Below are positions 2,612-38,464 of a stretch of 64,000 nucleotides of DNA, one piece after another. Location: positions 4,220-68,219 of the forward strand of contig CANQHQ010000003.1 of NCBI GenBank assembly GCA_947623825.1, read 5' to 3'. The translations under genes and the position numbers were made by a program. Within the stretch, counting starts at the first letter, position 1; the number at the start of each line of letters is the position of its first letter. The notes under the pieces are model-generated. The model was not told where the DNA came from. It did no database searches and was given only the letters and a program-made list of their open reading frames with translations. Source of the stretch: an uncultured Bacilli bacterium (GTDB lineage Bacteria; Bacillota_I; Bacilli_A; RF39; UBA660).

Positions 2612-5600
2612 TCTTCTTTCACCTCGATTTGAACTTCGTGTACCTTCTTATCATTTACTAATCGAATTTCTTTTGCTTCTACTCCATCGATTAGAATTCG
2701 TTTTTCCTTTTTCTTTTGTACTTGGATATGGTATTCTGTTTCCTCATAGTGATAAGTTAATTCTATGGTACTCCATTCTTTTCCCATTTGTGGATGAATT
2801 TCTAGTTTGTCTTTTCGTTTCTGGAAACCTAGTAGATTTTCTAATCCAATTCGATAAAACCATCCACTCGATCCTGTATACCAAGTCCATCCTCCTCGTC
2901 CACGATGATTTGGATTCGAATAGATATCCGCCGCAATGACATATGGTTCGGTCCTATACGTCTTTGTATCTTTTTCTGTTTTGGTACGGTGAATTGGGTT
3001 TACCATCTGGAAGATTTTTAAGGCTTCCTCTTCTCTCTTTAATTTTAAGAGCGATAAGATATACCAAGAAACGGCATGAGTATATTGTCCTCCATTTTCT
3101 CTTACCCCTATCGGATAATCCATAATATAACCCGCATAATTTCTACTGTTTTTAAAGGCTGGAGTTAACAATTTTACAATTTTGATATTTTTATCGACCA
3201 ATTGGTCTTCGACACAACGAAGAACACTTTCGATTCTTTCTTTTGGAATCACTTCTGATAAGATAGAAAAACTTTGCGATATTAAATCGATTTTACATTC
3301 TTCGCTTTCTTTGCTTCCTACTTTGGTTCCATCATCGAAGAAAGCACGTAAATAATATTCTCCATCCCATGCCTGTTCATTGATATTTTTCTTTAATTCT
3401 TCCCGCGCCTTTTCATATTTTTCGGTAGAAAGGTTCTTATCGTATTTTTTGGTTAACTGAATGAACTTCTCTAAGACGTCGTAGAAGAAGAAGGCAAGCC
3501 AAACACTTTCTCCTTTTCCTTGGATTCCGATTTGGTTCATTCCATCGTTCCAATCTCCTCCACCCATATGAGGAAGTCCGTGTTCTCCTAAATCATTCAA
3601 TGTCCGTTCGATAGCGAGACGGCAGTGTTCATACAAGGAAGCGGTTTCTTCACTCAAAGTAAAGTCTTCTCCTCGTTCTTCCTCAAAATCTTGAAGAAGA
3701 CTTCCTTGGGCAAAAGGAATTTGTTCTTTCAAAATAGAAGTATCTTCGGTGACTTCGATATAATCATTCGTTGCGTAGACAAGCCATAAATAGTCATCTT
3801 TGAAGCGACTTCGCAATCCAAAATTCTTTGGTTCTAACCACCAGTGAAGTACGTCTCCTTCCTGGAATTGATGACTGGCATTTTTCAAAATTTGTTTTCT
3901 AGCCAATGCCGGATAGATACTACGAAGATTCATCGTATCTTGTAATTGGTCTCGATATCCAAAAGCCCCACTTACTTGATAGAATCCAGCCCGAGCGAGA
4001 ATTCGTCCGACAATCGTTTGATATAAGTACCAACCATTCATCATGTAATCGAAACTTGGGTCATTGGTTTTTACTTGTACTGTTTCGAGTGTTTTCTTCC
4101 AGAAGGCTTTGACTTTCGATAATTCTTTTTCATACTCTTTCGTGGAAGCGTACTTTTCTTTGATTTCTTTAATTTCTTCTAGATTTCCGCCCACTCCCAG
4201 GATAAATCCGATCTTCTTCTTTTCTTTTCCTTTGAGTTCGATAAAAGTTTGAACAGATTTCACAAGAATTTTATCACCGTTCATTTCGTTAATCGGTTCC
4301 GTCGAAGTTACAAAGATAAGGTTCTCTCGATATTCTTTACTATAAACGTTTCGAAGGGTCATCCAGTTTTCTTCTGGATAGGTTTCCGTTAGTAAGTATC
4401 GACTGGTTTTCTCTTCTAGATTTCCTAAAACAGGATTCAACCAATAAGCAACGTCATATTGTTTGGTTTCTTCTGTTAAATTTTCTATCTCGAAAAGATA
4501 AAATTTTACTTTTTCTTCGGTCGCTACAAATTCCGTCAAAGTCTCTTTCAACTCTTTGGTTTGACTTTCAAAAATGGTATATCCGAATCCATGTCTTGCG
4601 ATACTTGGGTAAAAACTTTCTTGATTGATGCGAATTCCTTCCGACTGATCGAAGGAAACGATATCATTCGTCCAAGAAGTAAGCTTGAATTCTTGACTGT
4701 TATAGGCATAGGTAAAGCCACTCGCATTATTACTTACCAACGTACCAAATTGGGCATTCGCAAGGATATTGAACCATGGAGTTGGCGTATCTGGTGTCGT
4801 GATGACATATTCTTTTCCTTCGTTCGCAAAACCACCAAAGCCATTGGCAAAGGCAAGATTTTTTTCTGGTGGAGCGGGAAGATTCTTTTGTTTTTGAATC
4901 GGTTGATACGTACTCGCACTGTTTTGGGCTTGTAGTGCTTCAATATAAGAATGCATCGAATCATGTTCCCTACTATCCAAACGAAGACGAGCGACCACAT
5001 TAAATAACAATTGTTCTTCCTTGGTCATATCATCAGAATGAATATAGAAAATCTTTCCAGGACGATTGCCAAAAGAATTCGTCTTATAGATTTGATAAAT
5101 CGTAAAATCAATTTCTTCTTTGATTCGTTTTTCGTACTGCTTCTTTTCATCGTTGATGATAATGACATCAACAAAAATTCCCTTCGTTTTAAAATATTCG
5201 TAGGCCTTCAATAGTTGTTTTGCCAAACTGATGGCACTCAGATCATGGATTGTTAAAGTAATCATCGGTCGATCACCAGAGACTCCAAACTTCCAGAGAG
5301 AATCTTGCGCTAGAACATTTCTCTTCAAGAGTTCTTTTCTTTCTTCATTGATGTTCATTTTACTTGTCTGATACAAATAATTTAACATGATATTGTAAAG
5401 TCTCATATCTCGACCTGTAATGTTTAGTTTTTTACAGTTCGAAAGATTCGTGATGGTGGCAAGTTCAAATTCTTCTTCGATTGAAGATTCATTCTCATAG
5501 AATTTCGCAATATCAATGACTTGATTTCGACTCGTTCCAAAGCAGTTCAAAATATAAATTTCTCTGGATTCTTCTGGGGCAAGAGAAATGGTGTTTCTCA

Positions 5601-8600
5601 TACTCATGACAGGATCAATTGGGGTCGCTGCTTCATTGGAAAGTTTTCCTTCAAGGGCAATTGGATTCGTCGCCGTACGATTTCTTCCGATAAATTGAAC
5701 TCGTTGCGTCTCGTATTCGTAATCTTTTTCTGTATCTGGAATATAAAGGCGATGAAGCAAATAATAACGATCGGGACGATTTCGTAAAGTTCGTTTCATA
5801 ATTAAAGCATTGACATTCGTATCGTATTCACTCTCTAAGAAAAGATTATTGAACGTTCGATGCGTTACATCGTTAATATTCTCCGTAATGGTTGGTTCTA
5901 GATACGTGGTAAGTTCTAGTGTTTTCTTTGTCTTGGCATTGTTTTTGATGGTTACTTTTCGAATTTCGGCATTATACATCGTACTGACAATGATTTCCGT
6001 CGTCGTCGCAACCTCGTTTTCAACCAAAACATATTTCAAACGATCGGAAGCAAAAACTACTTCATATTTTTCTGGTTTCCGGTTGATTGGGGCATAAGTA
6101 TTACTCCAAATTTTGCCATTTTCGGTATCTTTGAGGTAAAGAAAGGTTCCATAATCTTGTTCCGTTACCTTGCGATACCGATTTAATTGAATTTCTTTAT
6201 AACGACTGAATCCATTTCCTCTATCGTTCATCAATACTGTATACTTCGAATTTGAAATCGCACTCACTTCTGGTAAATCGGAAGGACAAGTAAAGTAACG
6301 CATATCATTTTCAATGACTTCTTTTTCATAGTTAAATCGTTTGTACTTCGCAATCTTCCAATCGATGACAGGATTTAATTGAATCTTTTCTTTTGTCAAA
6401 ATCTCAAAAGCCCGATTATTGGTATCTTCCATAAAATAGTCTTGGATGATTCCATTCTTTAGATAATTGGTAAGCGAAGAAAGAATCATTCCCTGATGAT
6501 GAGAGAAGAACGCCCGAACTGGTTTTTTGGTCTTTGTATCATACGATTCATAGAATCCGTAAGGGGTTTCTAATCCCAATTTTCTTAGTTTATGAATGTT
6601 TTTATACACTTCTTTTGGTTTTTCGATCGTCACAAGAATCGAACTATAAGGAGAAATAACAAGATGCGTATCGTTTACTTCTTGTAATTTTAGATAAGGG
6701 ACAGAGAACGTTTTATATTTATAATTGACTCCATTATCTAATTCGTCATAGGCACATTCACTAATTCCCCATGGTAAATGACGATTTCTTTCCTGCATAT
6801 AAGCTCTTTGACAGAAATAAGCAAAATCGTAACTTTCATCTAAGAGAGTGTTTGGATAACTCTTCATAAAGATGAGAGGCATGTAGTATTCAAAAAGAGA
6901 CCCAGCCCAAGAAGCAACTCCTTTATGATGTCGAAATTTCGTTAGTGTTTTATCGAGGCAAAACCAATGTTTACTTGGTACATCTCCTTTCGCTATCGCT
7001 ACATAACTGAGTAGACGACTTTCACTAGCGAAGCGGTTGTATTTATAAACGGAACATTCATTTTCAAAATCGTTGTATCCCACACTGAAGACTTCTTCTT
7101 TCGTATATAATTTTGAAAAATCTGTTTGTTGAATCAAAAGACGACAACGATTCGCTAATCTTTCTTCCCCTATTTTTTTGAGAAATTCTTTGGTTACGAT
7201 GAGACAAGCAACAAAATTTCCACTATCTACCGAAGAGACAAAGTGTGGGAATAATACTTTCAATGTTTCTGTTTGATACCAGTTATATAAATGTCCATTC
7301 CATTTGTCTAGTTTCTCTATCGTTTCTAGAATTTTTTCCATATAGAAAGTGGCTTCATTCTTTTTGATGAAACCAAGTTCATAGGCAGAAACAACCGCAA
7401 GGAAAGAAAATCCGATATCGGTAGGAGAAGTTTTATTATCCCGTGCATAAGCGCGATTTTCTTGATAGTTATCAGGAATTAAGTAATGGTATTCTTCCGT
7501 TAAATTTTCTTCAAAGAACTTCCATGTCTTATGGGCGATAGCTTCTATATCTTTTGTTTCTTCTTTCGAAAGTTCCTGTGTCCGATTTCTTCTTGTTTCC
7601 TTACTGATGTAATACGTGATATAAGGCGCAAGAGAGAACGTTAAACTGATACACAAAGCAGAAATAAAGTTAGAATTTTGTCCAAATAGATAAGTGAAGA
7701 GAAGAAGGATAAAAATGATAAAGTAATTGGCTTTGAAGTTTTCAATATAATTCGTTAACGTATTTTTTATAGTCTTCTCTGCTTCTTCCGCGGTTAGCCA
7801 ACTGAGCAAATGTTTTTTACTGATGATCATCCGATATAAAGAGCGAAAAATCGCATCTAAATAAAGCGCGGCTTTATAAGGAAGGGTCGTAAAAGAAATA
7901 ATGGTTCTTAAAATGACCGCTTCTCCACTTTTAATGATATTCGTATATGGTTTTACTTTTACTTTTCTTGTGAATTGATGACTCAACTTTTCTGTTATAT
8001 AGAAAATGAGTGGCATCGCGATAACGAATAATACATAGATACTCCATCCCGTTAAATAACTGTGCGAACTGAAGTAAGCAAATAATAAGATAACAAGTAA
8101 GAAAAACTCGATGAGGCAACGTCGTAAGTTATCAAAAATTTTCCATCTTTCTAAAAGCGTCAACGGATTTTTATACTTTTTCCCTTGTTCATCTTTTACG
8201 TATGGGAAGAGCCATGGTAAGACCTGTGTATCGCCACGCATCCAACGATGATGCCTTGTCATATCCGTCAAATATTGACTACAAAAATCATCGAATAATT
8301 CAATATTGGAAGTGTATCCACTATGAAGATAGTTGCTTTCTACCAAATCGTGGGAAAGAATGAGTCCTGTTGGGAAACGATGGTCAATGACTTCGTCGTA
8401 CACTTTTAAGTGATAAATTCCTTTTCCCATAAAGCTTCCTTCGTGGAACACATCTTGATAGAAATTCGAAATTAACGTGTTGTATACGTCAAATCCACCG
8501 AGTCCAGCGAAGAGTTCTGCATAAAGAGAACGATTGGATGATTCGACATCGACACTTAGTTTCGGTTGCAAAATTCCATATCCTTGTACTACTTTATTTC

Positions 8601-10299
8601 TTTCTTTATTCAACACGGGTTGATTGAGAGGATGCGCCATTGTTCCAACTAAATCCGCTACACTACCAACGACAAGTTTGGTATCGGCATCTAGTGTAAT
8701 CACATATTTTATCTTTTCTTTTAAACTGTGTAACGTCTCTACTTTAAAAAATTTTTGTACTTCTTCTTTCGGCATTTTATTTAAGAGAAGCCGGTTAAAA
8801 TGAATCAAAGCTCCTCTTTTTCTTTCCCAACCGAGATAAGAATCTTCTGTCTCGTGATATACGCGATTTCGGTAAAGGAAAAAGAAACGTTCTTCTTGAT
8901 ATTTTTCGTTTAATTCTTTGCATTTTTGGATTCCATAAGCGGCTACTTCTTCATCGTGAGGAACCGCTTCTTGCTTTTGTTCACTACAATCTCCTAATAA
9001 AGCAAAATAGAGATGGTCCATCCGGTTTGCAAGAAATCCTGATTCTAAATTCGAGAACATAGCATCGATTTTTTTCTTATCCTTCAAAATGGTTGGAATC
9101 ACTACCATCGTTGCTTCACTTTCGCGAATTCCTTTTGAAAAATCTAATTTAGGAAGGGCTTTCGGTTTTAACTCTGTCGTTAAAATTCGATTCAAAATGG
9201 TAATGACAATTTCACTCGAAGGAATCCATAAAATGAGAAATCCAAGAAGTTTCTGTTCGGTCAGATAAGGGGCAAGTCCATAACTGATGGCACTCGTAAA
9301 CAAGAGAATAATGGTAAAATACAAGAATTCTCTTCTTTTTCGATTGGGCTCTTTTAAAAGATAGAAACCAATATGCTTCTTTTCTCTAGTACTTTGCGCA
9401 ATCAATCTTCGGACATAAATTAATTCACTCACCTTTTGTTTTTTGGCAAGTTTTACAATTCTTTCCCGATACATATTTTTAGAATCGGCATCCATCATTC
9501 GATAGGTACGATCACTATTCAATTCTTCTTCGGTTTCACTAATTTCTTCATAAATCGATTCGAGTTTGAGATGCTCATTCATCTTTAAAATGAGGAATAA
9601 ATTACTGATGACTAAATTCTTTTTGATTCTGTCTTCATAGACTTCATTTAATACCCTTTTTAGATTGGTATTATTTCTTTCTAAGTTTTCGTTTAATTCG
9701 TAAAATACTTGACTAGCCCCGCGATTTAAACGGTAAAGATTTTCATTTAGATATTCGATATAGATAGGATAATTGATGATATCTTCCTTAATTGTGATAT
9801 ATTTATGGATATCATCTTCCGGATGTTTCAAAAGTTTTTTTCCAAGAAAGACAATATCACTTTCTGCCCTTTTTCTTTCTAACATGGCACTTTTTTCAGC
9901 TACACATAATTCTTTTACTTTGTGAATAATTACCATAGATAGAATTGGACGAATTCGTTGAAGTCCTTGATAGGTAAAACTGATTTTATTATTCTTTTGA
10001 TAATATTTCAAATGACGAAACATACTTCTTTTCGTCATTTTATAATTGTTATTTTCCAAATAGTTCGTTAAAACATTCCAAAGTAGTTCACTCGTTTCTT
10101 TGGTATTACGAATCAACTTTTCATCGGCATAGATTTCTTCAATCATATTTTGATGCTCTAATAAGGTGGCATAGTTATCCAAAATCCACTCATTTAAGGC
10201 CCCGATGGGTTGATGGTTTTTTGTCTTCTTTACCAAAAAATTATAATATTTGGAAATGATTCTTAAATCCTTTTTAAACTCTCTATATCTTTTATACAT
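2608..10299 (-). CDS. Cyclic beta-1,2-glucan synthase-like giant protein (Cgs/NdvB/ChvB architecture). It has a membrane-embedded GT84 glycosyltransferase domain and a C-terminal GH94 glycoside phosphorylase-like domain.
   Basis: The N-terminal half has multiple transmembrane segments and a GT84 block: ITLDADTKLVVGSVADLVGTMAHPLNQPV ... GYGILQP ... LSHDL ... HHRWMRGDTQVLPW. These match the Cgs motifs TLDADT, MAHPLN, GYGILQP and HRWxRGDWQ. The C-terminal half carries GH94 signatures: GYRDQLQD, HWW, GGDWNDGMN, ENGGQYTHAVSW and GRGGWTWYTGSSGW. The ORF-track start (10332) is a TTG. The ATG at 10299 (MYKRYREFKK) has a GGGTGA Shine-Dalgarno 6 nt upstream and is preferred; it gives 2563 aa. Confidence 0.8.
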   Translation of the reverse strand: MYKRYREFKKDLRIISKYYNFLVKKTKNHQPIGALNEWILDNYATLLEHQNMIEEIYADEKLIRNTKETSELLWNVLTNYLENNNYKMTKRSMFRHLKYYQKNNKISFTYQGLQRIRPILSMVIIHKVKELCVAEKSAMLERKRAESDIVFLGKKLLKHPEDDIHKYITIKEDIINYPIYIEYLNENLYRLNRGASQVFYELNENLERNNTNLKRVLNEVYEDRIKKNLVISNLFLILKMNEHLKLESIYEEISETEEELNSDRTYRMMDADSKNMYRERIVKLAKKQKVSELIYVRRLIAQSTREKKHIGFYLLKEPNRKRREFLYFTIILLFTSAISYGLAPYLTEQKLLGFLILWIPSSEIVITILNRILTTELKPKALPKLDFSKGIRESEATMVVIPTILKDKKKIDAMFSNLESGFLANRMDHLYFALLGDCSEQKQEAVPHDEEVAAYGIQKCKELNEKYQEERFFFLYRNRVYHETEDSYLGWERKRGALIHFNRLLLNKMPKEEVQKFFKVETLHSLKEKIKYVITLDADTKLVVGSVADLVGTMAHPLNQPVLNKERNKVVQGYGILQPKLSVDVESSNRSLYAELFAGLGGFDVYNTLISNFYQDVFHEGSFMGKGIYHLKVYDEVIDHRFPTGLILSHDLVESNYLHSGYTSNIELFDDFCSQYLTDMTRHHRWMRGDTQVLPWLFPYVKDEQGKKYKNPLTLLERWKIFDNLRRCLIEFFLLVILLFAYFSSHSYLTGWSIYVLFVIAMPLIFYITEKLSHQFTRKVKVKPYTNIIKSGEAVILRTIISFTTLPYKAALYLDAIFRSLYRMIISKKHLLSWLTAEEAEKTIKNTLTNYIENFKANYFIIFILLLFTYLFGQNSNFISALCISLTFSLAPYITYYISKETRRNRTQELSKEETKDIEAIAHKTWKFFEENLTEEYHYLIPDNYQENRAYARDNKTSPTDIGFSFLAVVSAYELGFIKKNEATFYMEKILETIEKLDKWNGHLYNWYQTETLKVLFPHFVSSVDSGNFVACLIVTKEFLKKIGEERLANRCRLLIQQTDFSKLYTKEEVFSVGYNDFENECSVYKYNRFASESRLLSYVAIAKGDVPSKHWFCLDKTLTKFRHHKGVASWAGSLFEYYMPLIFMKSYPNTLLDESYDFAYFCQRAYMQERNRHLPWGISECAYDELDNGVNYKYKTFSVPYLKLQEVNDTHLVISPYSSILVTIEKPKEVYKNIHKLRKLGLETPYGFYESYDTKTKKPVRAFFSHHQGMILSSLTNYLKNGIIQDYFMEDTNNRAFEILTKEKIQLNPVIDWKIAKYKRFNYEKEVIENDMRYFTCPSDLPEVSAISNSKYTVLMNDRGNGFSRYKEIQLNRYRKVTEQDYGTFLYLKDTENGKIWSNTYAPINRKPEKYEVVFASDRLKYVLVENEVATTTEIIVSTMYNAEIRKVTIKNNAKTKKTLELTTYLEPTITENINDVTHRTFNNLFLESEYDTNVNALIMKRTLRNRPDRYYLLHRLYIPDTEKDYEYETQRVQFIGRNRTATNPIALEGKLSNEAATPIDPVMSMRNTISLAPEESREIYILNCFGTSRNQVIDIAKFYENESSIEEEFELATITNLSNCKKLNITGRDMRLYNIMLNYLYQTSKMNINEERKELLKRNVLAQDSLWKFGVSGDRPMITLTIHDLSAISLAKQLLKAYEYFKTKGIFVDVIIINDEKKQYEKRIKEEIDFTIYQIYKTNSFGNRPGKIFYIHSDDMTKEEQLLFNVVARLRLDSREHDSMHSYIEALQAQNSASTYQPIQKQKNLPAPPEKNLAFANGFGGFANEGKEYVITTPDTPTPWFNILANAQFGTLVSNNASGFTYAYNSQEFKLTSWTNDIVSFDQSEGIRINQESFYPSIARHGFGYTIFESQTKELKETLTEFVATEEKVKFYLFEIENLTEETKQYDVAYWLNPVLGNLEEKTSRYLLTETYPEENWMTLRNVYSKEYRENLIFVTSTEPINEMNGDKILVKSVQTFIELKGKEKKKIGFILGVGGNLEEIKEIKEKYASTKEYEKELSKVKAFWKKTLETVQVKTNDPSFDYMMNGWYLYQTIVGRILARAGFYQVSGAFGYRDQLQDTMNLRSIYPALARKQILKNASHQFQEGDVLHWWLEPKNFGLRSRFKDDYLWLVYATNDYIEVTEDTSILKEQIPFAQGSLLQDFEEERGEDFTLSEETASLYEHCRLAIERTLNDLGEHGLPHMGGGDWNDGMNQIGIQGKGESVWLAFFFYDVLEKFIQLTKKYDKNLSTEKYEKAREELKKNINEQAWDGEYYLRAFFDDGTKVGSKESEECKIDLISQSFSILSEVIPKERIESVLRCVEDQLVDKNIKIVKLLTPAFKNSRNYAGYIMDYPIGVRENGGQYTHAVSWYILSLLKLKREEEALKIFQMVNPIHRTKTEKDTKTYRTEPYVIAADIYSNPNHRGRGGWTWYTGSSGWFYRIGLENLLGFQKRKDKLEIHPQMGKEWSTIELTYHYEETEYHIQVQKKKEKRILIDGVEAKEIRLVNDKKVHEVQIEVKEE

Positions 10300-10398
10300 C
10301 GATATCACCCTACTCCTACTATAGTATATCAAAAATTCCCCTCATTCGGAAGTCAAAGTAGGAAAAAAATAAAAGGAAGGGGAAGTTTTTTCCCTTTC

Positions 10399-11331
10399 CT
10401 ACATACTGGCAATAAAAATTTCGAAGGCGAGTTCGGCATTTCCATTCCCGCTTTTCATATCATAATCTACTTGGGCAAGTTTTTCTAAATATTCTAGTAG
10501 CATCTCCTCTGTATAACCATAGGATGCTTCTCTTGCTAATTTTACTGGATAAGGATGCATTCCTAGTTTGGTGCCGATTTCTTGATCACTCCATCCTTTT
10601 TGAAGGAGAATTTTTGTCTGATAAATTAAGCGAATTTTATTTGCTAATTTGGTTAAAACACTAGAAGACTGTTCTCCATGAAGCAATAAATCCTGATACA
10701 TTTCGAAGGCTTCTTTCTTTTTTCCCGTTAGAATCGCATCTACTAAAGAATAGATATTTTCTTCCCAATTCTTGCGGACGATTTCTTTGATATCATTCGC
10801 GGTAATTTTCTTTTCTTCGACTCGATACAATTTTAATTTCTCTAATTCGTTTAGGACAATACTCGGATTTTGTCCACAATATTCTATTAGGAAGTCGATG
10901 GTTCTCGTATCCATTTCATACCCATCCAATCTCTGTTTGACCATTTCTTTGATTGATTCTTCTTTTTGGATGAGTGTTCCTTTTTCACATAGTTTTGTTA
11001 CAATTTTTTTTCGTTTATCGATTTCTTCTGCGACTAAAATCAAAATGTTTTCAGGACTAGGATGATCGAGATATTTTTCTAATCGTTCTAAGTGATGTGT
11101 GACTTCTTTCAGCGAACTATCTTTCGCTAAAAAAGTGGCGTTCCAACCAAGAATTACTTTCTTAGAGGAAAGAAAATTATAGGTATCTAAGTCCTCAATT
11201 AAACGATCGATAGGTGTTTCTAGTAAATCGTAACTTACTTTTTCGATTTCTTTTTCTTTTGAAAGAATTTGATTAATCTGAAATTCTGTGACTTGCGGAT
11301 CTTTTGAAACAATTAGGTAGACGTTACTCAT
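10399..11331 (-). CDS. holA: DNA polymerase III delta subunit
   Basis: 310 aa. Its size, its position immediately downstream of alaS and its HolA-like N-terminus (MSNVYLIVSKD...) support the call. Domain-level assignment only. Confidence 0.7.
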   Translation of the reverse strand: MSNVYLIVSKDPQVTEFQINQILSKEKEIEKVSYDLLETPIDRLIEDLDTYNFLSSKKVILGWNATFLAKDSSLKEVTHHLERLEKYLDHPSPENILILVAEEIDKRKKIVTKLCEKGTLIQKEESIKEMVKQRLDGYEMDTRTIDFLIEYCGQNPSIVLNELEKLKLYRVEEKKITANDIKEIVRKNWEENIYSLVDAILTGKKKEAFEMYQDLLLHGEQSSSVLTKLANKIRLIYQTKILLQKGWSDQEIGTKLGMHPYPVKLAREASYGYTEEMLLEYLEKLAQVDYDMKSGNGNAELAFEIFIASM

Positions 11332-14008
11332 TGGCTTGTTCCCTTATTTTGGCAAAAATTTCCTCGATGTGAGCCGTCGTTTTTCCTCCTCCTTGTGCAA
11401 AAGTTTTACTTCCTCCTCCATTGCCATCGGATAGTTGACTTGCCATCTTGACGATGCTTCCTGCTTCAATTTGACAGTTACTACGAGCGATAAAATTTAC
11501 ATTTTCATTCTTACAATTGGCGAAAAGGATGAATCCTTTTTCCATTTTATTCAATAAATCATCAATAATATTTTTTAAGACATTGGAATCGGCATCGTTT
11601 AACTTCATTAAAAGAAGTTTTACTCCACCCACTTCTTCGATATTTTTTTCGTACATCGATGTGTCTTTCAAAGCTAGATTTTGTTTTTCTTGTTGATACC
11701 GTTTCTCTAGTTCTTTGACTTCTGTTTGGGTATATTCTAATTCATTTCTTTCCGAAACAAGATCTGCATAACTCATCGGTTCTTTGTTATCAATTTGAAT
11801 ATCAAAGTCTAGTTCGATTCCTTCGCATTTGGCTTTCGAAATGATGTTTCTTGCCTTCATTAAAAGTTTGATTTTTTCGTCATTATATGGTTTGATGACT
11901 TCCATTAGTTTATCTTCAATTTTGTCATTGGTTACTGCTTCGATTCGGTAAACGTTACTTCCCTTTGATTCAACAGAGAAAATCGCAATCCGACGAATTT
12001 CATTCGTGTTATGAATGTGCGTTCCTCCACACAATTCTTTGGAGTCTCCAATCGTCACAACTCTTACTTTTTCTTTATACTTTTCACCGAATAAAGCCAT
12101 TGCGCCCGTTTTCTTTGCTTCTTCCAAATCCATAATCTCTGTCTTGGCATCGATTTTATTCTGTACATAGTCATTTAGGAAATTCTCTACTTCGATGATC
12201 TTGTCGTCTAATAATTTTCCTGTATAAGTGAAATCAAAGCGGAGAGAATCTTCATCGACTCTACTTCCGGCCTGATGAATGGTATCACTCACTAATTTTT
12301 GAAGAGCGTATTGAAGTAAATGGACAGAAGAATGGTTGGCTTCAATTTCATGTCGTTTTTCAATGTCTAGTGTTTCATTGACTGTGTCTCCTACGGATAA
12401 CGTTCCATTTAAAATTTTGACACGATGAAGATTTTGACCATTTGGAGCCTTGATGGAATCTAACACTCTCGCCGTCACATTATGGTTCGTCAACATTCCT
12501 GTATCGCTTACCTGTCCTCCACTTTCGGCATAGAAACAAGTTTTATCTAGGACGACATAGCCTTCTTTTTTTAATTCATCGACTTGTTTTTCTTCTTTGA
12601 ATAGGCCTACGATTTTTCCTTTGGTTGTATACGTATCATATAAGAACTCACTCGTTTCATGAAAGTTTAATAAGGCCTCATTTTGAATATTCATGTTGGC
12701 TTCCTGCTTGCGAGAAGATTTCGCCAAATTCTTTTGTTCTTCCATGTAGTGATCAAATTCTTCTTTCGAAGTCGTGAATCCTTTTTCCTCGAGATATTCC
12801 ATTGTCAACTCGTAAGGAAATCCATACGTATCATATAATTTAAATACTTCTATCGCTGGGATTTCTTTTGTTTCGGCATTTTTCATTAAGTCTAGTAAAC
12901 GACGTTCTCCAGAAGATAACGTTTTATGGAAAAGTTGTTCCTCTTCATAAACGAGTGTTTCTACTTGTCCTTGGGTATCTTTCAATTCTGGATAGGATTC
13001 TTCCATGATTTGTACGACGGTATGGACCAGTTTATACATGAATGGTTCTTCCATTCCTAGTTTCTTTCCCATACGGACACTTCGTCTTAAAAGACGTCTT
13101 AGAACGTATCCTCTTCCGACATTTTCAAAAATTGCCCCGTCGGAAAGCGCTACGGTGATGGCCCGGATATGATCGGCAATAATTTTAAAGGCAGAATCTC
13201 CGTTATAGAGAACGCCACTCAATTCTTCAATTTTTTGGATAATTGGGACAAATAAATCGGTATCGAAATTGGAATCGACATCTTGAAAGATACAAGCCCA
13301 ACGTTCTAGCCCTGCCCCTGTATCGATATTTTTACTTGGTAATTCTTTATATTCTTCGCGAGGAACTCCTTCTTTGGAATTGAATTGACTAAATACATTA
13401 TTCCAGATTTCAACATAACGATCTTGGTCTTCGTCGTTACGGAATTTTTCTAGTGCGTCTTTCTTTGGATCGTACTTTTCTCCTCGATCATAGAAAATTT
13501 CTGAATCCGGTCCGCAAGGTCCTTCTCCAATTTCCCAGAAGTTTCCCTCTAATTTCGCTATATGGTCTGGCGTTACTCCTAAACTTAACCATTTCTCGTA
13601 AGCATCTCTATCATTTTTATAGACCGTAAAATAAAGTTTTTCTTTCGGAATCGCAAACCAGTCTGGACTCGTTAGTAATTCGAAAGCATACTCGATGGCT
13701 TCTTCTTTGAAATAGTCTCCAATCGAAAAATTTCCCATCATTTCAAAAAAGGTTTGATGTCTTGCGGTCATTCCTACGTTTTCAATATCGTTCGTACGAA
13801 TGCATTTTTGAATATTGACAATTCGACGATTTTCAGGCACTTCTCTTCCATCAAAATATTTTTTTAATGGGGCTACTCCTGCATTAATCCATAATAAACT
13901 TTTATCATCCTGAGGAATTAAAGGAGCACTCTTCATTTTCTTGTGTCCTTTTTGTTCAAAGAATTGATACCACATATTTCTAATTTCTGTTGATGTCATC
14001 TTTTTCAT
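11324..14008 (-). CDS. alaS: Alanine--tRNA ligase
   Basis: 894 aa. Begins MKKMTSTEIRNMWYQFFEQKGHKKMKSAPLIPQDDKSLLWINAGVAPLKKYF, the canonical AlaRS N-terminus. Has the C-terminal DHHA1-type tail with GGGK. Confidence 0.95.
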   Translation of the reverse strand: MKKMTSTEIRNMWYQFFEQKGHKKMKSAPLIPQDDKSLLWINAGVAPLKKYFDGREVPENRRIVNIQKCIRTNDIENVGMTARHQTFFEMMGNFSIGDYFKEEAIEYAFELLTSPDWFAIPKEKLYFTVYKNDRDAYEKWLSLGVTPDHIAKLEGNFWEIGEGPCGPDSEIFYDRGEKYDPKKDALEKFRNDEDQDRYVEIWNNVFSQFNSKEGVPREEYKELPSKNIDTGAGLERWACIFQDVDSNFDTDLFVPIIQKIEELSGVLYNGDSAFKIIADHIRAITVALSDGAIFENVGRGYVLRRLLRRSVRMGKKLGMEEPFMYKLVHTVVQIMEESYPELKDTQGQVETLVYEEEQLFHKTLSSGERRLLDLMKNAETKEIPAIEVFKLYDTYGFPYELTMEYLEEKGFTTSKEEFDHYMEEQKNLAKSSRKQEANMNIQNEALLNFHETSEFLYDTYTTKGKIVGLFKEEKQVDELKKEGYVVLDKTCFYAESGGQVSDTGMLTNHNVTARVLDSIKAPNGQNLHRVKILNGTLSVGDTVNETLDIEKRHEIEANHSSVHLLQYALQKLVSDTIHQAGSRVDEDSLRFDFTYTGKLLDDKIIEVENFLNDYVQNKIDAKTEIMDLEEAKKTGAMALFGEKYKEKVRVVTIGDSKELCGGTHIHNTNEIRRIAIFSVESKGSNVYRIEAVTNDKIEDKLMEVIKPYNDEKIKLLMKARNIISKAKCEGIELDFDIQIDNKEPMSYADLVSERNELEYTQTEVKELEKRYQQEKQNLALKDTSMYEKNIEEVGGVKLLLMKLNDADSNVLKNIIDDLLNKMEKGFILFANCKNENVNFIARSNCQIEAGSIVKMASQLSDGNGGGSKTFAQGGGKTTAHIEEIFAKIREQANE

Positions 14009-14543
14009 TGTTCTCTACCTCACTTACTATTCTCTTTACTTCTTTCTTTAGCCCTTCTAAACTTTCATTGATTACTTCATAATCAAAATTTTTATAGTCC
14101 GCTAAAGCCACTTCCGTATAATGCACTTGTTCCTCTTGGGATAAGGAACTTTCGTATTCTTTTCTGATGATATTGATACTGATACTTCCTGGAAATCGTT
14201 CTTTCAATGTCTCAATTTCTAAAGGAAGACGCACATCCGTCACCAAAAATACATCGTAATACTTTTCTAGAATATGGATATTTTCCGTCAATCGATCGAT
14301 GAAATAATAAGGCATACCCAATTCTTGACGAATCAATTCTGTTCCCATTTTTTGAAGTTTTTCGCGCGGTTTGGTTTCTTCGGAACCATCCCAACCAAAG
14401 TAATCTTTTAGTAACCATTTTAAAGGGCGCATCAATTGAATAAAACAAACTCTTTTTCCAAGAATCTCATATTCTTGTTGCATCATTTGACTCATCGTAT
14501 CTTTTCCATTGCGTGCTCTTCCACTGATTAGATATAACCTCAT
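13980..14543 (-). CDS. P-loop NTPase, nucleotide/deoxynucleotide-monophosphate-kinase-like small protein. First gene of the T-box-controlled alaS operon.
   Basis: 187 aa. Walker A-like ISGRARNGKDT near the N-terminus. Strong Shine-Dalgarno AAAGGAGGAG. Its 3' end overlaps the alaS start by 29 nt, so the two are co-transcribed. Confidence 0.4.
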   Translation of the reverse strand: MRLYLISGRARNGKDTMSQMMQQEYEILGKRVCFIQLMRPLKWLLKDYFGWDGSEETKPREKLQKMGTELIRQELGMPYYFIDRLTENIHILEKYYDVFLVTDVRLPLEIETLKERFPGSISINIIRKEYESSLSQEEQVHYTEVALADYKNFDYEVINESLEGLKKEVKRIVSEVENNEKDDINRN

Positions 14544-14775
14544 ATTTCTCCTCCTTTTTGGTAAATTAAAAGACCTAAACAGGAGCGAACAGGTCGCGGT
14601 ACCATCCTCATTAGATCTCTTTTTTGATAACGGAATTTTTTCTTCCGGAATTTCTTCACTCCAAAGTAGCTTCCCATACTCTTTTTATCAAGTTCCACCT
14701 ACCCTTGACTCTCTAGTAAAAAGGTCGTATCGTACTCATCTTCTTCAACGTTTTCTCTTGCTTTCCTAAGCAACT
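14544..14775 (-). promoter_or_regulatory. T-box riboswitch leader (presumed Ala specificity) with upstream sigma-A-like promoter
   Basis: On the minus strand the T-box consensus AGGATGGTACCGCG sits at plus 14595..14609. It is followed by a GACCU...AGGUC hairpin and UUUUAAUUU (terminator/antiterminator switch). The promoter is TTGCAT, a 17-nt spacer, then TATAAT at about 14815..14780. The leader is about 230 nt. Confidence 0.7.
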
Positions 14776-14851: not shown

Positions 14852-14884
14852 AAGAAAAAATCCAAGAAGTTTTCCTCTTGGATT
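14852..14884 (-). terminator. Rho-independent terminator of the surface-protein gene
   Basis: Minus strand: AATCCAAGAGGAAAACTTCTTGGATT (9-bp stem) followed by TTTTTCTTATTT, immediately after the stop at 14887. Confidence 0.6.
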
Positions 14885-14886
14885 TC

Positions 14887-17800
14887 TTATTCATCATAAT
14901 TAGGAATGATGGTTGCTTTGAACCCATAATAGTCGCTACCACTACTATCTGTATGAAACAAGATTTTAAGATAATTTCCAGGGATAAGAATCGTTTCTGT
15001 TGTCTTGGTACTTCCTCCATACTTTCCATACTGTTTCTCATTAGAATCATATAGATAAATATAATCCCAACTTGGGCCTTCTGTTTGATACTCCAATATA
15101 ACTGTTAAAGAAGTCGCATTGTCAAAAGTATGTTCATATTCTTCGTTCAGATCACTATCATATGGATTATGTTTAGACTCCATGATAGTTCCCTCAACCA
15201 CTGTTACATTCGTAATGATGACATCTTCATTCGGCATAACAAAGGTATTTCCTTTCATTTTCGTTCCATTCATGTCAAACGAAGTAACTACACAATTATC
15301 TTGAGTTGATGTTAATGTAATTTTGGTAGTTATAATTCCACCAGATGGAGTCGCAATAATATCTTCTCTATCTTGAATCGTTACCGAATGTTCCACACAC
15401 GGACCGCTTGCTTTTACTACATTCGATTTTTCAGATCGGGTTGCAATCATTTGATCTACTAACGCTTCCGATTCAGTTGTATAATTGACTGTGATTTGAG
15501 CATTATTTTGGGTAGCAGCGCTAGAAAACATATAATCATAACTAGTCACCGAATTATTTAAAATACTGATTGTTGTGGTTAAAGTACTACAACCAGAAAA
15601 CATGGAACTCATATCCGTTACTTTACTTGTGTCCCAACCACTTATATCTAAACTGGTTAAGGATTTACATCCATAAAACATACGACTCATATTGGTTACT
15701 TGTTCGACGTTCCATCCACTTAGATTACCCACATTAGTTAAAGCGTGACAGTTAAAAAACATCTCATTCATATCCGTTACTTTACTTGTGTCCCAACCGT
15801 TTAAATTCCCAATACTGGTTAAGGAATAACAATTAGAAAATATGTAATGCATGTCGGTTACTTGACTCGTGTTCCAGCTGCTTAAATCTAAACTGATTAA
15901 GCGTTGGCACCAGTAAAACATGTAATGCATATCCGTTACTTTACTGGTATCCCAACCACTTATATCTCCGACACTAGTTAAGTCATAACACCCCTCAAAC
16001 ATGTTGCACATATTCGTTACCTGACCGGTGTTCCATTTACCTAAGTTTAAACTAGTTAAACTTAAACAATTATGAAACATCTGACTCATATTAGTTACTT
16101 GACTTGTGTCCCAGTCACTTATATCTCCCATATTGATTAAATCTTGACAACTAGAAAACATACTCCTCATACTAGTTACTTGATTTGTGTGCCAGTTACT
16201 CAAATCCTCTAAACTAGTTAACCGAATACAATCTTTAAACATATAACTCATATCAGTTACATGACTCGTGTCCCAGTTTTTTAAACCTTCTAAACTAGTT
16301 AATTGACTACAACCATTAAACATACTAGCCATATCGGTTACTTGACTTGTGTCCCAGCCACTTAAATCTAAACTGGTTAAAGCTTTACAACCAGAAAATA
16401 CCTGACTCATATTGGTTACTCGACCCGTGCTCCAGCCACTTAAATCTAAACTGGTTAAAACTTTACAATTATCAAACATCCCACTCATATTGGTTACTTG
16501 ACTCGTGTCCCAGTCACTTAAGCCCTCTAAACTGGTTAAGACGTAACAATTATAAAACACCATACTCATATTGCCTACATGACCTGTGTCCCAGCCACTT
16601 AAATCTAAACTGATTAGGGAAGTGCAATAGTAAAACATCTGCCTCATACTAGTTATCAGGCTTATGTCCCAGCCACTTAAATCTAAACTGATTAGGGAAC
16701 TACAATAGTAAAACATCTGCATCATATTCTTTAGTTGACTAGTATTCCAATCACTTAAACCCTCCAAACTAGTTAAGGTGCTACAATTATAAAACATACA
16801 ATCCATATTGGCTACTTGACTGGTGTCCCAGCCATTTAAATCTAAAGTGGTTAAGGAATAACAATTATAAAACATCTCATACATATTGGTTACTTTTCTT
16901 GTATCCCAGCTACTTAAATCCAAACCTGTTAAAGCTCTACAACGAGAAAACATTTCACTCATATCGGATACTTGGCTCGTATCTAATAATTCTAAATCTT
17001 CTATCGCCTTTAATTTTGAAAAGGAAGAAAAATAATCGCCACCAAATAAGTAAGAACTATCTGAATTCGCAATGACTCTCCCTTCCAAGCCTTGAATATA
17101 GGCAGTATAAGTCGAAGAATCATCAGAATTCGGTACCAATAATCCTCGTACGGATCCATCTTTAGCTTCTGAAATATCCCATGTAAGTTCATCAGTAGCA
17201 CCTTCTTTTAATGTCTGTTCCCCTTCAATTACTATCTTTGTAATAGATTCTTTATATTGCCATAGTTCTCCATTATAACTACTAGAATCTATTTCTTGAA
17301 GAACTGGATCTTTTTGGACGTAAACCTCTCCTTCCACCGACTTCGATAATCCCATTCTTCCCCATTCTGCTCGTAATGTTACATCCTTCTCAGGCATTGT
17401 AAAGTAGTCATCATTCAGTTTCTTCACTCCTCCTGTAACAATCTTCCATCCTTTGAATTGATATCCTTGGCAGGTAGGGGTCTCACTACTTTTCTCTACC
17501 GTTTCAAAGACTCGGTAACTAGATTTCTCCGGTACCCCACTCACACTACATCCACTTGGGGCATTTCCATCATAAGTAACATTATAATGACTTGCTAAAA
17601 TAGGAGTTTCTTTGGTCGTAACATCTTCTCTATCTTCTTCTATTTGAGAAACCACTTCACTACTCTTGTTAGTCAGGTAAAGTCCTCCTTCTTCAAGATA
17701 TGCTTCCTTTAAATCAATATCAATTGTTAAGGTAGCACTTCTTCCTGCACCTAACCCACTTAAATCCCATGTGACTTTTGATACTCCATTATCATCTTCT

Positions 17801-18714
17801 AATTTTACTTTTCCAATAGAAGACTGAATATTCGAAACATTCTTTAAATCAAAATATTCATTATTAATCCAATCCGTTAATATAAAGTTCTCATAAGGAG
17901 TTGGCACAACCGAAGCATCAAACAAAATATTATTCAACGTAGTCATATCAGCGATGAACTGACTATCACTAATTTCTTTGATGGGATCTAGAATTTCTTC
18001 TCCCATTTCATACTGAACTCCATGAATGTTTAACCATGGATATTCACTCTTTAAATATTTGTATTCTCCTATTTGATTCGGAATATCTTCATTCGGGTAT
18101 CCATCCGTTAAAAATAAAACAACGCATTCTGTATCTTTCTCCTTGGAATAGTTTTTCAAAATCTCATCCACATGGACAAGTGGTTGATAATAATTCGTAC
18201 TACCTTGATCAGAAAGAGAAGAAATTTTCTCTGTTAAACTACTCTTATCATTAGTAAAACCAGATACCAATTCTGACCCTGTATCAAATGTAATCAATGC
18301 TGCTTGATTGTTAGGATTAGATAATAATGTATTCAATAAACTGATGGAATCTTCTTTGACTCGGTCTAATTTTTCTCCTGCCATAGAACCTGAAATATCA
18401 AGGACTAAAATGACATCCGTATTTGGATTTCCCGTCCTTAAAACTGTATCTACTTGGAAAGTAATTCTCGCTTTTCCCAATCCAATCCATTCGGCACTCT
18501 TCTCTATCTTCCAACTCCCTGAATTCTTCTTTTCATAACTTAACGTTTTTGAAAAAAAAGAAATCTTGGGAACTGGTTCATTTAAGGCATATGAGTTCAT
18601 CAAAAGCCCTATTCCAATCATAAAAAAGCCTAGTAGTCCAAGAGATACAAACTTTAAATTCTTATGAATCTTTAAAAACAACCAGTTCATAAATTTTCCT
18701 CCATCAAAAAACAA
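14887..18714 (-). CDS. Large surface protein. N-terminal signal/anchor, von Willebrand factor A domain, Listeria-Bacteroides repeat, about 19 tandem DUF285-type repeats, and a C-terminal beta-rich domain.
   Basis: 1275 aa. Begins with the hydrophobic MNWLFLKIHKNLKFVSLGLLGFFMIGIGLL. The VWA MIDAS motif is DVILVLDISGSMAG. YNVTYDGNAPSG...GYQFKGWK...TLRAEWG is a Listeria-Bacteroides repeat (PF09479). A long array of 25-aa units follows, of the form LSxWDTSxVTxMxxMFxxCxxLTSLD, which matches DUF285 (PF03382). A GGAGG Shine-Dalgarno sits 8 nt upstream. Confidence 0.8.
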   Translation of the reverse strand: MFFDGGKFMNWLFLKIHKNLKFVSLGLLGFFMIGIGLLMNSYALNEPVPKISFFSKTLSYEKKNSGSWKIEKSAEWIGLGKARITFQVDTVLRTGNPNTDVILVLDISGSMAGEKLDRVKEDSISLLNTLLSNPNNQAALITFDTGSELVSGFTNDKSSLTEKISSLSDQGSTNYYQPLVHVDEILKNYSKEKDTECVVLFLTDGYPNEDIPNQIGEYKYLKSEYPWLNIHGVQYEMGEEILDPIKEISDSQFIADMTTLNNILFDASVVPTPYENFILTDWINNEYFDLKNVSNIQSSIGKVKLEDDNGVSKVTWDLSGLGAGRSATLTIDIDLKEAYLEEGGLYLTNKSSEVVSQIEEDREDVTTKETPILASHYNVTYDGNAPSGCSVSGVPEKSSYRVFETVEKSSETPTCQGYQFKGWKIVTGGVKKLNDDYFTMPEKDVTLRAEWGRMGLSKSVEGEVYVQKDPVLQEIDSSSYNGELWQYKESITKIVIEGEQTLKEGATDELTWDISEAKDGSVRGLLVPNSDDSSTYTAYIQGLEGRVIANSDSSYLFGGDYFSSFSKLKAIEDLELLDTSQVSDMSEMFSRCRALTGLDLSSWDTRKVTNMYEMFYNCYSLTTLDLNGWDTSQVANMDCMFYNCSTLTSLEGLSDWNTSQLKNMMQMFYYCSSLISLDLSGWDISLITSMRQMFYYCTSLISLDLSGWDTGHVGNMSMVFYNCYVLTSLEGLSDWDTSQVTNMSGMFDNCKVLTSLDLSGWSTGRVTNMSQVFSGCKALTSLDLSGWDTSQVTDMASMFNGCSQLTSLEGLKNWDTSHVTDMSYMFKDCIRLTSLEDLSNWHTNQVTSMRSMFSSCQDLINMGDISDWDTSQVTNMSQMFHNCLSLTSLNLGKWNTGQVTNMCNMFEGCYDLTSVGDISGWDTSKVTDMHYMFYWCQRLISLDLSSWNTSQVTDMHYIFSNCYSLTSIGNLNGWDTSKVTDMNEMFFNCHALTNVGNLSGWNVEQVTNMSRMFYGCKSLTSLDISGWDTSKVTDMSSMFSGCSTLTTTISILNNSVTSYDYMFSSAATQNNAQITVNYTTESEALVDQMIATRSEKSNVVKASGPCVEHSVTIQDREDIIATPSGGIITTKITLTSTQDNCVVTSFDMNGTKMKGNTFVMPNEDVIITNVTVVEGTIMESKHNPYDSDLNEEYEHTFDNATSLTVILEYQTEGPSWDYIYLYDSNEKQYGKYGGSTKTTETILIPGNYLKILFHTDSSGSDYYGFKATIIPNYDE
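15540..16990. repeat. Intragenic tandem repeat array with a period of about 75 bp, about 19 copies, encoding the DUF285 units
   Basis: A 75-nt periodicity is visible in the DNA. The recurring core is gttacttgactcgtgtcccagccacttaaatctaaactggttaa, with copy-to-copy divergence. Confidence 0.7.
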
Positions 18715-18804
18715 GGAATCTTATTTTTTTACTAAAAAAGAAAAAGGAACACGTATTACAAAATATTTTAGGGATTGTATTTGTGGTTCCTATCTTATCT
18801 CTAT

Positions 18805-18845
18805 TCTTAGTATACCCCCCCCCCACCTTGAAAAGTCAATAAAAA
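18805..18845 (-). promoter_or_regulatory. Promoter of the surface-protein gene with a homopolymeric G10 tract in the -35/-10 spacer (candidate phase-variation switch)
   Basis: Minus strand reads aTTGACTtttcaaggtGGGGGGGGGGTATACTaag. The -35 TTGACT is at plus 18839..18834. The -10 TATACT is at plus 18814..18809. The spacer is 19 nt and includes 10 consecutive G (plus C-run 18815..18824). With 8 G the spacer would be the optimal 17 nt. The Shine-Dalgarno/ATG lies about 90 nt downstream. Confidence 0.55.
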
Positions 18846-18862
18846 AGAGGCAACTGCCTCTA
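18841..18862 (-). terminator. Rho-independent terminator of the AI-2E transporter gene
   Basis: Minus strand: GAGGC AGTT GCCTC then TTTTTTATT, directly after the TAG stop. The T-run abuts the -35 of the downstream promoter. Confidence 0.5.
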
Positions 18863-20005
18863 GTTTGTCATCTTTTCCATGAGGGAAAATTTTTGATTGA
18901 AAAATTGCCAAATCGTCTTTACTAACGCAATGATTGGAGTCGATAAAATCATTCCTATGATGCCAAAGAAGTTTCCAAATACTAGTAAACCAAGCATAAT
19001 TGTTACTGGATGAAGTTTCATTGTTTTTCCCATGACTAATGGTTGTAGGAAATAACTTTCCAATAATTGGGCAATGACTACGGCAATAAAAGTACAAAGT
19101 CCTGTCATCGGATTCATAGAGAATCCTACTAATACGGCAGGGATTCCTCCGATATATGGTCCAATATAAGGAATAATATTGGTTACGGCACAGAATAGTC
19201 CAAATACCATTGGGGCTTTTAATCCAGCGATGGCTAAAGCAACCGATTGGAATAGGAAGAGAATTGCCATAATACGCAAGGTTCCTTCGACATAACTTCG
19301 TAAATTTCCATTTAACTTGTCGACGAGTTCCCTTGTATCTGCGCGATATCTCTTTGGTAGAAGATTCAATAAGTGTTCTTTCACATTTCCAAAATCAAAC
19401 AACATATAGAATCCAACCAAAAGTCCAATTAGAAGATTGACTCCTCCTGTAAGAATATTACTAACCATCGACATGATTTTGGTTGGAAGTCCGACGGTTA
19501 ACGAATTTCCTAATTTATTAATTGAATCATAGAATCCTACTTGTACTTCCTTTAGATCATATCCTGTGGAACTTGTTAATTCATCAAAAATACCATCTGC
19601 CCACTCTTTAATATCATTGAAAAATCCTGGGGCTGAAGCAATTAAGTCATTTAATTGTTGTCCAATCATCGGAATCATCATGTATAAAATTAAAATAATC
19701 AATGCGATTAAAATTACATAAATGAAAATGACTCCTAAGGTTCGATTGACTCCTTTTTTCTCTAATGTTTTTACCATCGGATCAAATAACCATGCGAGAA
19801 ATAATCCAATGAAAAACGGAGAAATGATTTTTAAAATTCTTCCTATTATCCCAAAAATTTTCAATTCTCCCATCAATTTGATTGTAATGTATGCCAGTAA
19901 AGCGATGGAAAGAAAAAGAATAATTTTTAATAAGGAAACACCAATACTGATTCCTTCGTTTAATTTTTTATAGTCGACGGAATCGTCTTTTCGTTTGACA
20001 AACAT
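18860..20005 (-). CDS. AI-2E family transporter (PerM/YdiK/UPF0118-type membrane protein)
   Basis: 381 aa with about 8 transmembrane segments. The family-typical C-terminal region reads PYIGPYIGGIPAVLVGF...ALVKTIWQFF. Shine-Dalgarno GAGGTGG. Confidence 0.75.
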   Translation of the reverse strand: MFVKRKDDSVDYKKLNEGISIGVSLLKIILFLSIALLAYITIKLMGELKIFGIIGRILKIISPFFIGLFLAWLFDPMVKTLEKKGVNRTLGVIFIYVILIALIILILYMMIPMIGQQLNDLIASAPGFFNDIKEWADGIFDELTSSTGYDLKEVQVGFYDSINKLGNSLTVGLPTKIMSMVSNILTGGVNLLIGLLVGFYMLFDFGNVKEHLLNLLPKRYRADTRELVDKLNGNLRSYVEGTLRIMAILFLFQSVALAIAGLKAPMVFGLFCAVTNIIPYIGPYIGGIPAVLVGFSMNPMTGLCTFIAVVIAQLLESYFLQPLVMGKTMKLHPVTIMLGLLVFGNFFGIIGMILSTPIIALVKTIWQFFNQKFSLMEKMTN

Positions 20006-37925: not shown

Positions 37926-38464
37926 ACCTATTCCTCTTTTCTTGCCCTATTGTATCATTTTCTTTTTTCTAGTGTCAACGTTGTACGTCGTAAAGGATAC
38001 TTGTCATCCTACCTTGTTTTTTATTACTGACCATTTAATCAGTACAGTAAAAGGAGTTTTGATTTTAAAGATTCCGTTCTACCAAACACTAGACTTTTGG
38101 AAATGGTTCTCATATAAAAAAGATTTCCTATTCACAAGGAAACCTTCTCTTCTTTCTTGTGTCCAGAAGACCGTTTCGGTCGGCGATAAAACCTGCATTT
38201 TTACAGGTGGGTGTCCATACGAAGTTCTTAGGATTCCTTCCTATCACCGGAAGGCATTCAACACAAACTTCTTGATCCGAACTCCCGTATCGTCACTTTA
38301 GTCGGTTTTATATGTGACCTATCTCGTATCTCCTAGACAATTTTAGTATATCATACTTTTTCATTTTTCAAAGAGTTTTTCTTTCTTTTTCAAAAAATCT
38401 AGGCTTGTACTCTTTTTTTGGAAACTATTTCTTTCTTTTCTCATAAATTATCATAGGTGATTCT

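Follow-up and report, generated by a model that had tools for sequence, protein, structure and literature searches.

In the promoters of Bordetella pertussis fim2/fim3 and of Neisseria meningitidis opc, a poly-C tract (coding strand) positions an activator site relative to the -10 element. A poly-A tract between the -35 and -10 elements of the Mycoplasma hyorhinis vlp promoters is said to be a proven switch, and the tract of N. meningitidis porA reportedly comprises about 9-11 G. In porA, the poly-G tract is located in the -35/-10 spacer of a surface-protein promoter, where one-base changes alter both the spacing and the transcript level (review, PMC3899988). Poly-G tracts of up to G13 have been found upstream of each of the spma genes of Mycoplasma agalactiae, for which phase-variable transcription is suspected, and DUF285 (drp/BspA) proteins form part of the variable surface repertoire of the same species (PMC2824730, PMC12103780). 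In Campylobacter jejuni, tracts of G8-G11 mutate at 1e-4 to 4e-3 per division, with insertions dominating at G8-G9 and deletions at G10-G11, so that the tracts are parked near G9-G10 (PMC3401435). Repeat-driven multi-locus phase variation has been documented almost only in pathogens, and whether it is restricted to them is an open question (2025 review, PMC11868660).

Here, we analysed a G10 homopolymer located between two promoter hexamers in front of a large surface-protein gene. It lies in a 64,000-nucleotide stretch of DNA, the whole of which was analysed and is referred to as the window. The tract is probably a slipped-strand contingency promoter of the porA type, an interpretation that is well supported for the class of loci to which it belongs and that is extended to the window locus itself by inference. 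The promoter is on the minus strand. Its -35 hexamer TTGACT (18834-18839), read from the sequence, is identical in the promoter of an aligned paralogue (see below), and its -10 hexamer TATACT (18809-18814) is retained there as well. The 19-nt spacer between them (18815-18833) is composed of tttcaaggt (18833-18825) and the G10 homopolymer (18815-18824; C10 on the plus strand), which adjoins the -10 hexamer and is the proposed slippage-prone element. The original prediction, TTGACT-(19 nt)-TATACT with ten G in the spacer, can be read directly from the minus strand at 18839-18809. Phase variation through a promoter spacer involves a homopolymer of about 8 or more, and the run at 18824-18815 has ten. 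It also involves placement of the repeat inside the spacer, which is here that of the predicted promoter TTGACT-19-TATACT, with hexamers conserved in the paralogue and terminators on both sides.

The gene upstream of the promoter encodes an AI-2E family transporter (permease) of 381 aa (18860-20005, minus strand; Pfam PF01594, E = 1.7e-62), and the intergenic gap between it and the surface-protein gene is 170 nt. The intrinsic terminator of the permease was located by a terminator scan at 18841-18861 on the minus strand, with the hairpin AGAGGCAGTTGCCTCT (18861-18846) and a T5 tail (18845-18841). It overlaps the permease stop codon and, after TTTTT-A, is followed directly by the -35 hexamer. 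The tract had been described as squeezed between the upstream terminator and the -10 hexamer, and this was borne out, as the T5 tail ends at 18841, the -35 hexamer starts at 18839 and G10 abuts TATACT. Transcription would start about 7 nt past TATACT (near 18802), giving a predicted 5'UTR of about 112 nt (18691-18802, minus strand; from the sequence) that is partly conserved with the paralogue. The leader contains the ribosome binding site (RBS) GGAGG at 18702-18698.

A few other candidates in this region were rejected. The 96-aa ORF at 18807-19097 that spans the tract overlaps the permease gene out of frame and was regarded as spurious. A G-quadruplex was dismissed by reasoning, as one G10 run by itself is unable to fold into an intramolecular four-tract structure, and so was reiterative transcription at the G-run, because a run upstream of the -10 hexamer would not be transcribed from the TTGACT/TATACT promoter. 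In the leader RNA (18735-18791, minus strand), GGAACC...GUGUUCC can pair into a hairpin ahead of UUUUUCUUUUUU, a possible attenuator. This was not adopted, the terminator-like hairpin and U-run being weak (fold z = -1.7) and the fold being absent from the paralogue. An Rfam scan of the window gave no match in 18600-18900; it recovered only two features, both elsewhere, namely a T-box leader and, at 38156-38342 on the minus strand, a 6S RNA gene (RF00013, 65.7 bits).

The gene under the promoter (14887-18690, minus strand) encodes a predicted surface protein of 1267 aa, as derived from its translation and Pfam matches. The original prediction had given a VWA/DUF285 protein of 1275 aa, which is the listed ORF counted from an upstream TTG. 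The domains were recovered by Pfam, and the length was revised, as the RBS-backed start is the ATG at 18690. From the N-terminus, the protein has a membrane anchor, a VWA domain, a Flg_new domain (Listeria-Bacteroides repeat), eight DUF285/BspA-like stretches and a C-terminal region without assignment. DUF285 (PF03382; BspA-like leucine-rich repeat) scored 616.9 bits against a cut-off of 25 over the 8 stretches, and residues 92-211 matched both VWA_2 (PF13519; 59.3 bits, cut-off 27) and VWA (PF00092; 43 bits, cut-off 23.8). The product of a phase-variable gene is expected to be surface-exposed or under fluctuating selection for another reason, and the predicted anchor together with VWA, Flg_new and the eight DUF285 stretches points to such a product.

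Directly past the stop codon, the terminator scan placed an intrinsic terminator with a 15-pair stem and a T-run (14855-14888, minus strand). Because of this strong terminator, the gene is considered a single-gene unit. The next feature is the T-box leader (14578-14757, minus strand; Rfam, 95.3 bits), which precedes the alaS operon, and the gene therefore depends on the TTGACT/TATACT promoter alone. Downstream of the T-box leader, a kinase-like ORF of 187 aa (13980-14543) extends into the start of alaS (11324-14008). Farther along the minus strand, an ORF of 2574 aa (2608-10332) contains GH94 catalytic, GH94 supersandwich and glucoamylase-like domains, an architecture that resembles, we presume, cyclic beta-1,2-glucan synthase and that we take to be unusual for small-genome gut Bacilli.

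Relatives of the permease were found only in genome bins of uncultured gut Bacilli, labelled Bacillales, Bacilli, Tenericutes, 'Mycoplasma sp. CAG:877' and Candidatus Faecimonas. Amino-acid identity reached 77% at best, so the reference genomes do not include the species of the window. A PASTA-domain penicillin-binding protein encoded in the window shows that the organism is walled. No mismatch-repair genes were present among the 21 window ORFs that were annotated, a result that applies to these ORFs and not to the genome. Of the 35 window ORFs of at least 150 aa, 33 are on the minus strand, and the plus-strand GC skew is negative throughout. ORF orientation and GC skew thus place G10 on the G-rich strand, which is presumably the leading one, so that the tract is co-oriented with replication.

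Apart from G10, the 64-kb window contains no G or C run of at least 7, and 0.0055 runs of at least 10 are expected in it from the base composition (35.7% GC). This low expectation, and the recurrence of the architecture before surface-protein genes in relatives (see below), upheld the view that the tract is not incidental. The same permease gene is present on three ENA metagenome contigs from three samples, belonging to assemblies ERZ27249651, ERZ27249657 and ERZ27249662, with an intergenic region that is 100% identical, including G10, and since all three carry the identical sequence, the tract is not an assembly artefact. Poly-G artefacts, for example from two-colour Illumina chemistry, are known in such data and the coverage of the ENA contigs is low, but a sequencing or assembly error is hardly conceivable for a tract that lies well within the sequence of the contigs, does not differ between three samples and the window, and is flanked by conserved promoter hexamers. 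The same architecture, moreover, was encountered in dozens of independent studies.

The proteins most similar to the window surface protein, P0001 and P0002 (80-81% protein identity), are very probably paralogues in the same organism, because they share its ENA samples and have a similar coverage. Their promoter loci (L094, 1266-1300; L095, 2780-2815) were thus found in the samples that yielded the window's contigs, and the paralogous VWA/DUF285 gene is located downstream of dnaG, a sigma-70-family sigma factor gene and trmK. When the two promoters were aligned, TTGACT and TATACT were identical and in register, and the leader was conserved in parts. The paralogue spacer, ttctaagatggaggagag, has 18 nt; its interrupted tract GGAGGAGAG lines up with the G-run except for a gap of one base, and the two spacers differ only by three A-to-G changes and one insertion. 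The paralogue is thus a natural control, in which the window's promoter is seen in a non-slippery version with an 18-nt spacer.

Conservation of both hexamers in register indicates that TTGACT/TATACT is a real promoter. Transcription of the gene might instead begin at another site in the 170-nt gap or enter it by read-through of the permease terminator, in which case the length of the tract would be irrelevant. A weaker promoter candidate was indeed reported by the scanner (TAGAGA-18-TACAAT, 18803-18774, with its -10 TACAAT at 18779-18774), and the stem of the permease terminator is short (6 pairs). However, TACAAT was not conserved in the paralogue alignment, which retained TTGACT and TATACT, and relatives with very short 5'UTRs show the -35/G-tract/-10 arrangement as well, making a promoter elsewhere most improbable. 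The assignment of TTGACT/TATACT in the original prediction was accordingly kept, as the paralogue preserves both hexamers and the 5'UTR and not the scanner's alternative -10. Upstream of the other homologues, namely P0083 (10 contigs), P0146 and P0203 (10 contigs each), P0126, P0127 and P0128, there was no G/C run of at least 6, and the tract is thus not typical of the gene family as a whole. The majority of the surface-protein homologues have ordinary promoters without a tract.

Loci from 80 related species (L004-L083; 1.15 Mb in total) were surveyed for G/C runs. There were 877 runs of length 4 and 144 of length 5, then 4, 0 and 0 of lengths 6, 7 and 8, and 6, 8 and 1 of lengths 9, 10 and 11. 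Runs of at least 9 thus numbered 15 against 0.26 expected, and runs of 6-8 were depleted (4 observed, about 38 expected). As in C. jejuni, such a gap in the run-length spectrum is the signature of selected hypermutable tracts (PMC3401435). In all 15 runs of at least 9, the strand of the downstream gene carries G and never C, and about 12 of the 15 are promoter-like, being located 0-11 nt upstream of a -10-like hexamer. Ten promoter-like tracts have TTGNNN at 16-20 nt. The spacer is 19 nt in six of these, as in the window (L005a, L013, L035a, L035b, L016 and L077, the last with N10+G9), 20 nt in two (L005b and L032) and 16 nt in two (L024a and L024b); that of L031 is 18 or 19 nt, depending on the bases taken as the -10. 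For the two tracts of L028, no -35 could be placed at a normal distance, and around the L033 tract no recognisable promoter was found.

Nearly all genes downstream of these tracts code for surface proteins that are secreted or anchored. They comprise seven members of a family that shares a signal-anchor N-terminal domain, two Gp10_C-like proteins, a SpaA/LPXTG pilin, a DUF285 protein and, in L005 with G11, a homologue of the VWA/DUF285 protein of the window. The recurrence of the architecture before such genes in related species, far above chance, supports the original prediction. In L005, the same cassette (aaaaagttactattgNcaaaaatNgcct + G10 or G11) was seen at 6140-6200 and 15095-15140 before two unrelated surface genes, the SpaA/LPXTG pilin, whose frame is split at a G5 run near 6556, and the VWA/DUF285 protein. 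In L012 (662-800), a G10 run is located in frame within codons 11-14 of a signal-anchor family protein. Going by its position in the reading frame, this coding tract would be a translational (frameshift-type) version of the switch, in a family that elsewhere has promoter tracts.

These counts also bear on the simplest account of the tract, a neutral accident in which A-to-G changes turned a purine-rich spacer, similar to the paralogue's GGAGGAGAG, into a pure G-run that has no selected role. The short mutational path from the paralogue spacer, three A-to-G changes and one insertion, is in its favour. Set against it are the roughly 58-fold excess of runs of at least 9 over expectation, the depletion of runs of 6-8 (about 38 expected, 4 observed) and the near confinement of the runs to promoters or 5' ends of surface-protein genes, and we consider drift a quite unlikely origin of the tract.

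Metagenome contigs were scanned with the pattern TTGACW, 0-20 nt, G9 or more, 0-3 nt, TATAMT, and at least 120 loci were obtained. Among the matches listed, the non-G part of the spacer peaked at 6-10 nt (mode 9); since 0-20 nt had been allowed, this peak indicates that the -35 hexamers are real. Total spacers ranged from 15 to 21 nt among the matches listed, with modes at 18 and 19. A hydrophobic N-terminal signal or anchor was predicted for 55 of 87 downstream ORFs of the matches listed, compared with 172 of the 555 ORFs that served as controls from these loci (odds ratio 3.8, p = 1.4e-8), and the downstream ORFs among these matches include lipoproteins, prepilin-type proteins and YSIRK-type surface proteins. 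In the metagenome loci L150, L157 and L165, poly-G spacer promoters precede prepilin-type N-termini (KGFTLIELL/VELV motif), and pilus or pseudopilus subunits may, by this likeness of their promoters, be under the same kind of switch. Poly-G promoters were also observed on viral or prophage contigs. In IMG/VR viral contigs (L243-L357), G9+TATAAT was present in 103 stretches and C9+TATAAT in 35, and a TTG -35 at 17-19 nt accompanied 14 of the 106 matches with a G-run and none of the 35 with a C-run.

In the literature searched, we found no description of a poly-G spacer device in uncultured gut Bacilli or in commensal gut Firmicutes. The statement that such promoters are rarely described in Firmicutes is thus accurate for that literature and not for nature, given the at least 120 such promoters in metagenomes. 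Poly-G tracts upstream of surface-protein genes have, besides, already been reported in M. agalactiae (PMC2824730).

Tract length was compared wherever closely similar loci were available. At the window locus, the tract is G10 in the window and in each of the three ENA contigs, which have a coverage of only 2-3x and may represent one strain. A cluster look-up for other strains of the species returned no close variants of the permease or of the large protein in the searched collection, and an exact-flank, variable-gap search for the window promoter in metagenome contigs gave 0 matches. Elsewhere, L031 (G10) and L116 (G12) came from two samples and had identical flanks and proteins that were 99.6% identical. 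Among the matches listed, the number of G differed in 8 of 12 metagenome clusters with near-identical flanks, with length pairs such as G9/G11, G9/G10, G12/G15 and G10/G12. In addition, two short metagenome contigs of orthologous genes (L119 and L242) begin, at their position 1, only 1-2 nt past the expected tract, and from these starts it seems that assemblies break at the tracts. The slipped-strand switch of the original prediction therefore gained support from near-identical loci in relatives and metagenomes, which differ in G number, and not from the window locus, which is G10 throughout. By analogy with this class, the window tract would slip as well, although every assembly of the locus reads G10.

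Accordingly, we hypothesize that G10 forms the -10-proximal half of the spacer in a promoter for the housekeeping sigma factor (sigma-A/sigma-70 type), and that slipped-strand mispairing during replication would add or remove a G. The distance between the -35 and -10 hexamers would then be 17 nt with G8, 18 nt with G9, 19 nt with G10 and 20 nt with G11, and this spacing would govern how well RNA polymerase contacts both hexamers. A clonal population would thereby give rise to cells with differing levels of the surface protein, in a heritable yet reversible manner. That expression follows tract length, and which length is ON, we infer from the proposed geometry; expression is probably low or intermediate in the state that was assembled (G10, 19-nt spacer).

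The commonest assembled spacing in the relatives is likewise 19 nt and not 17-18 nt, and because it is the commonest, a dead OFF state at 19 nt would be an odd majority. Three reasons for the excess are possible: most populations may be in a low state, a mutational bias may, as in C. jejuni, park the tracts at G9-G10, or G-tract DNA may shift the optimum spacing. The preference for G on one strand might be explained if a G at -14 mimics part of an extended -10 motif at any tract length.

Such features could also belong to a fixed promoter element, whose length is effectively stable and which is kept for a role in the DNA rather than as a switch. It might provide a G at -14 as in an extended -10, form a stiff A-like segment that enables a 19-nt spacer, or bind a regulator. 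Every assembly of the window locus reads G10, and 19 nt is the commonest spacing across species and is reached both as N9+G10 and as N10+G9. The non-template strand carries G and never C at 15 of 15 related loci (103 against 35 in the viral contigs), which favours a fixed element, since a pure length-counting device would not need such a strand preference. A stable length is, however, difficult to reconcile with the differences in G number in 8 of 12 near-identical clusters among the matches listed and between L031 and L116, and with assembled spacers of 15 to 21 nt among these matches, a range far wider than in ordinary promoters. Furthermore, G10 runs are intrinsically unstable in every organism measured (PMC3401435), and the paralogue, to judge by its promoter, would work with the same hexamers and no tract. 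A fixed element is thus regarded as unlikely, and the slipped-strand switch remains the preferred interpretation.

The window switch seems to be one member of a set of several loci in uncultured gut Bacilli. A broader proposal can be made tentatively, as a possibility about which we are rather doubtful: the window tract would be one locus of an undescribed multi-locus phasome of uncultured commensal gut Bacilli and the wider gut Firmicutes. In this joint proposal, the module would consist of a -35 hexamer, about 9 nt, G9-G11 on the non-template strand touching the -10, and the -10 hexamer. It would be portable, driving pilins, lipoproteins, prepilin-type proteins and BspA-like adhesins, and its 19-nt spacing would reflect the geometry or contacts of the G-tract, for example a G at -14, with an optimum other than the textbook 17 nt.

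What extends beyond the window is the presence of the same device in an uncultured lineage of gut commensals, before adhesin-like, pilin and lipoprotein genes and with tract lengths that differ between samples. Poly-G promoters before surface-protein genes across this lineage form a wider pattern that deserves follow-up. If the switch is confirmed, surface variation in small-genome gut Bacilli would be partly stochastic, and for the window gene, a candidate VWA/BspA-like adhesin of 1267 aa, a mixed population is predicted. Confirmation would also affect the reading of metagenome-assembled genomes, in which contigs seem to break at the tracts, as well as strain tracking and the way in which pressure on the microbiota from host immunity (IgA) and phages is interpreted.

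Among the known systems, fim2/fim3 and opc resemble the window locus in that a promoter homopolymer sets the spacing of promoter elements, but tracts of the window type are always G and are located between the -35 and the -10. The vlp promoters of M. hyorhinis share the homopolymer in the promoter spacer, with poly-A in vlp and poly-G in the window. The spma genes offer a low-GC relative within the Bacilli, with poly-G upstream of surface-protein gene families; their tracts are, however, described in the 5' untranslated region, where a role is only suspected, and the window organism, with its PASTA penicillin-binding protein, is walled and only distantly related to Mycoplasma. The phasome of C. 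jejuni is like the set found in the relatives in that it belongs to an AT-rich genome, with tracts of G8-G11 (modal 9), bimodal run lengths and control of surface structures (PMC3401435). Its tracts are mostly in reading frames, where they cause frameshifts, whereas those of the gut Bacilli are mostly in promoter spacers, with L012 as a coding example. From porA, the window locus differs in its host, an uncultured, walled, low-GC member of the gut Bacilli instead of a proteobacterial pathogen, in a tract that directly abuts the -10 and in an assembled spacer of 19 nt. With porA it nevertheless shares a G homopolymer in the spacer of a sigma-70-type promoter in front of a surface-protein gene.
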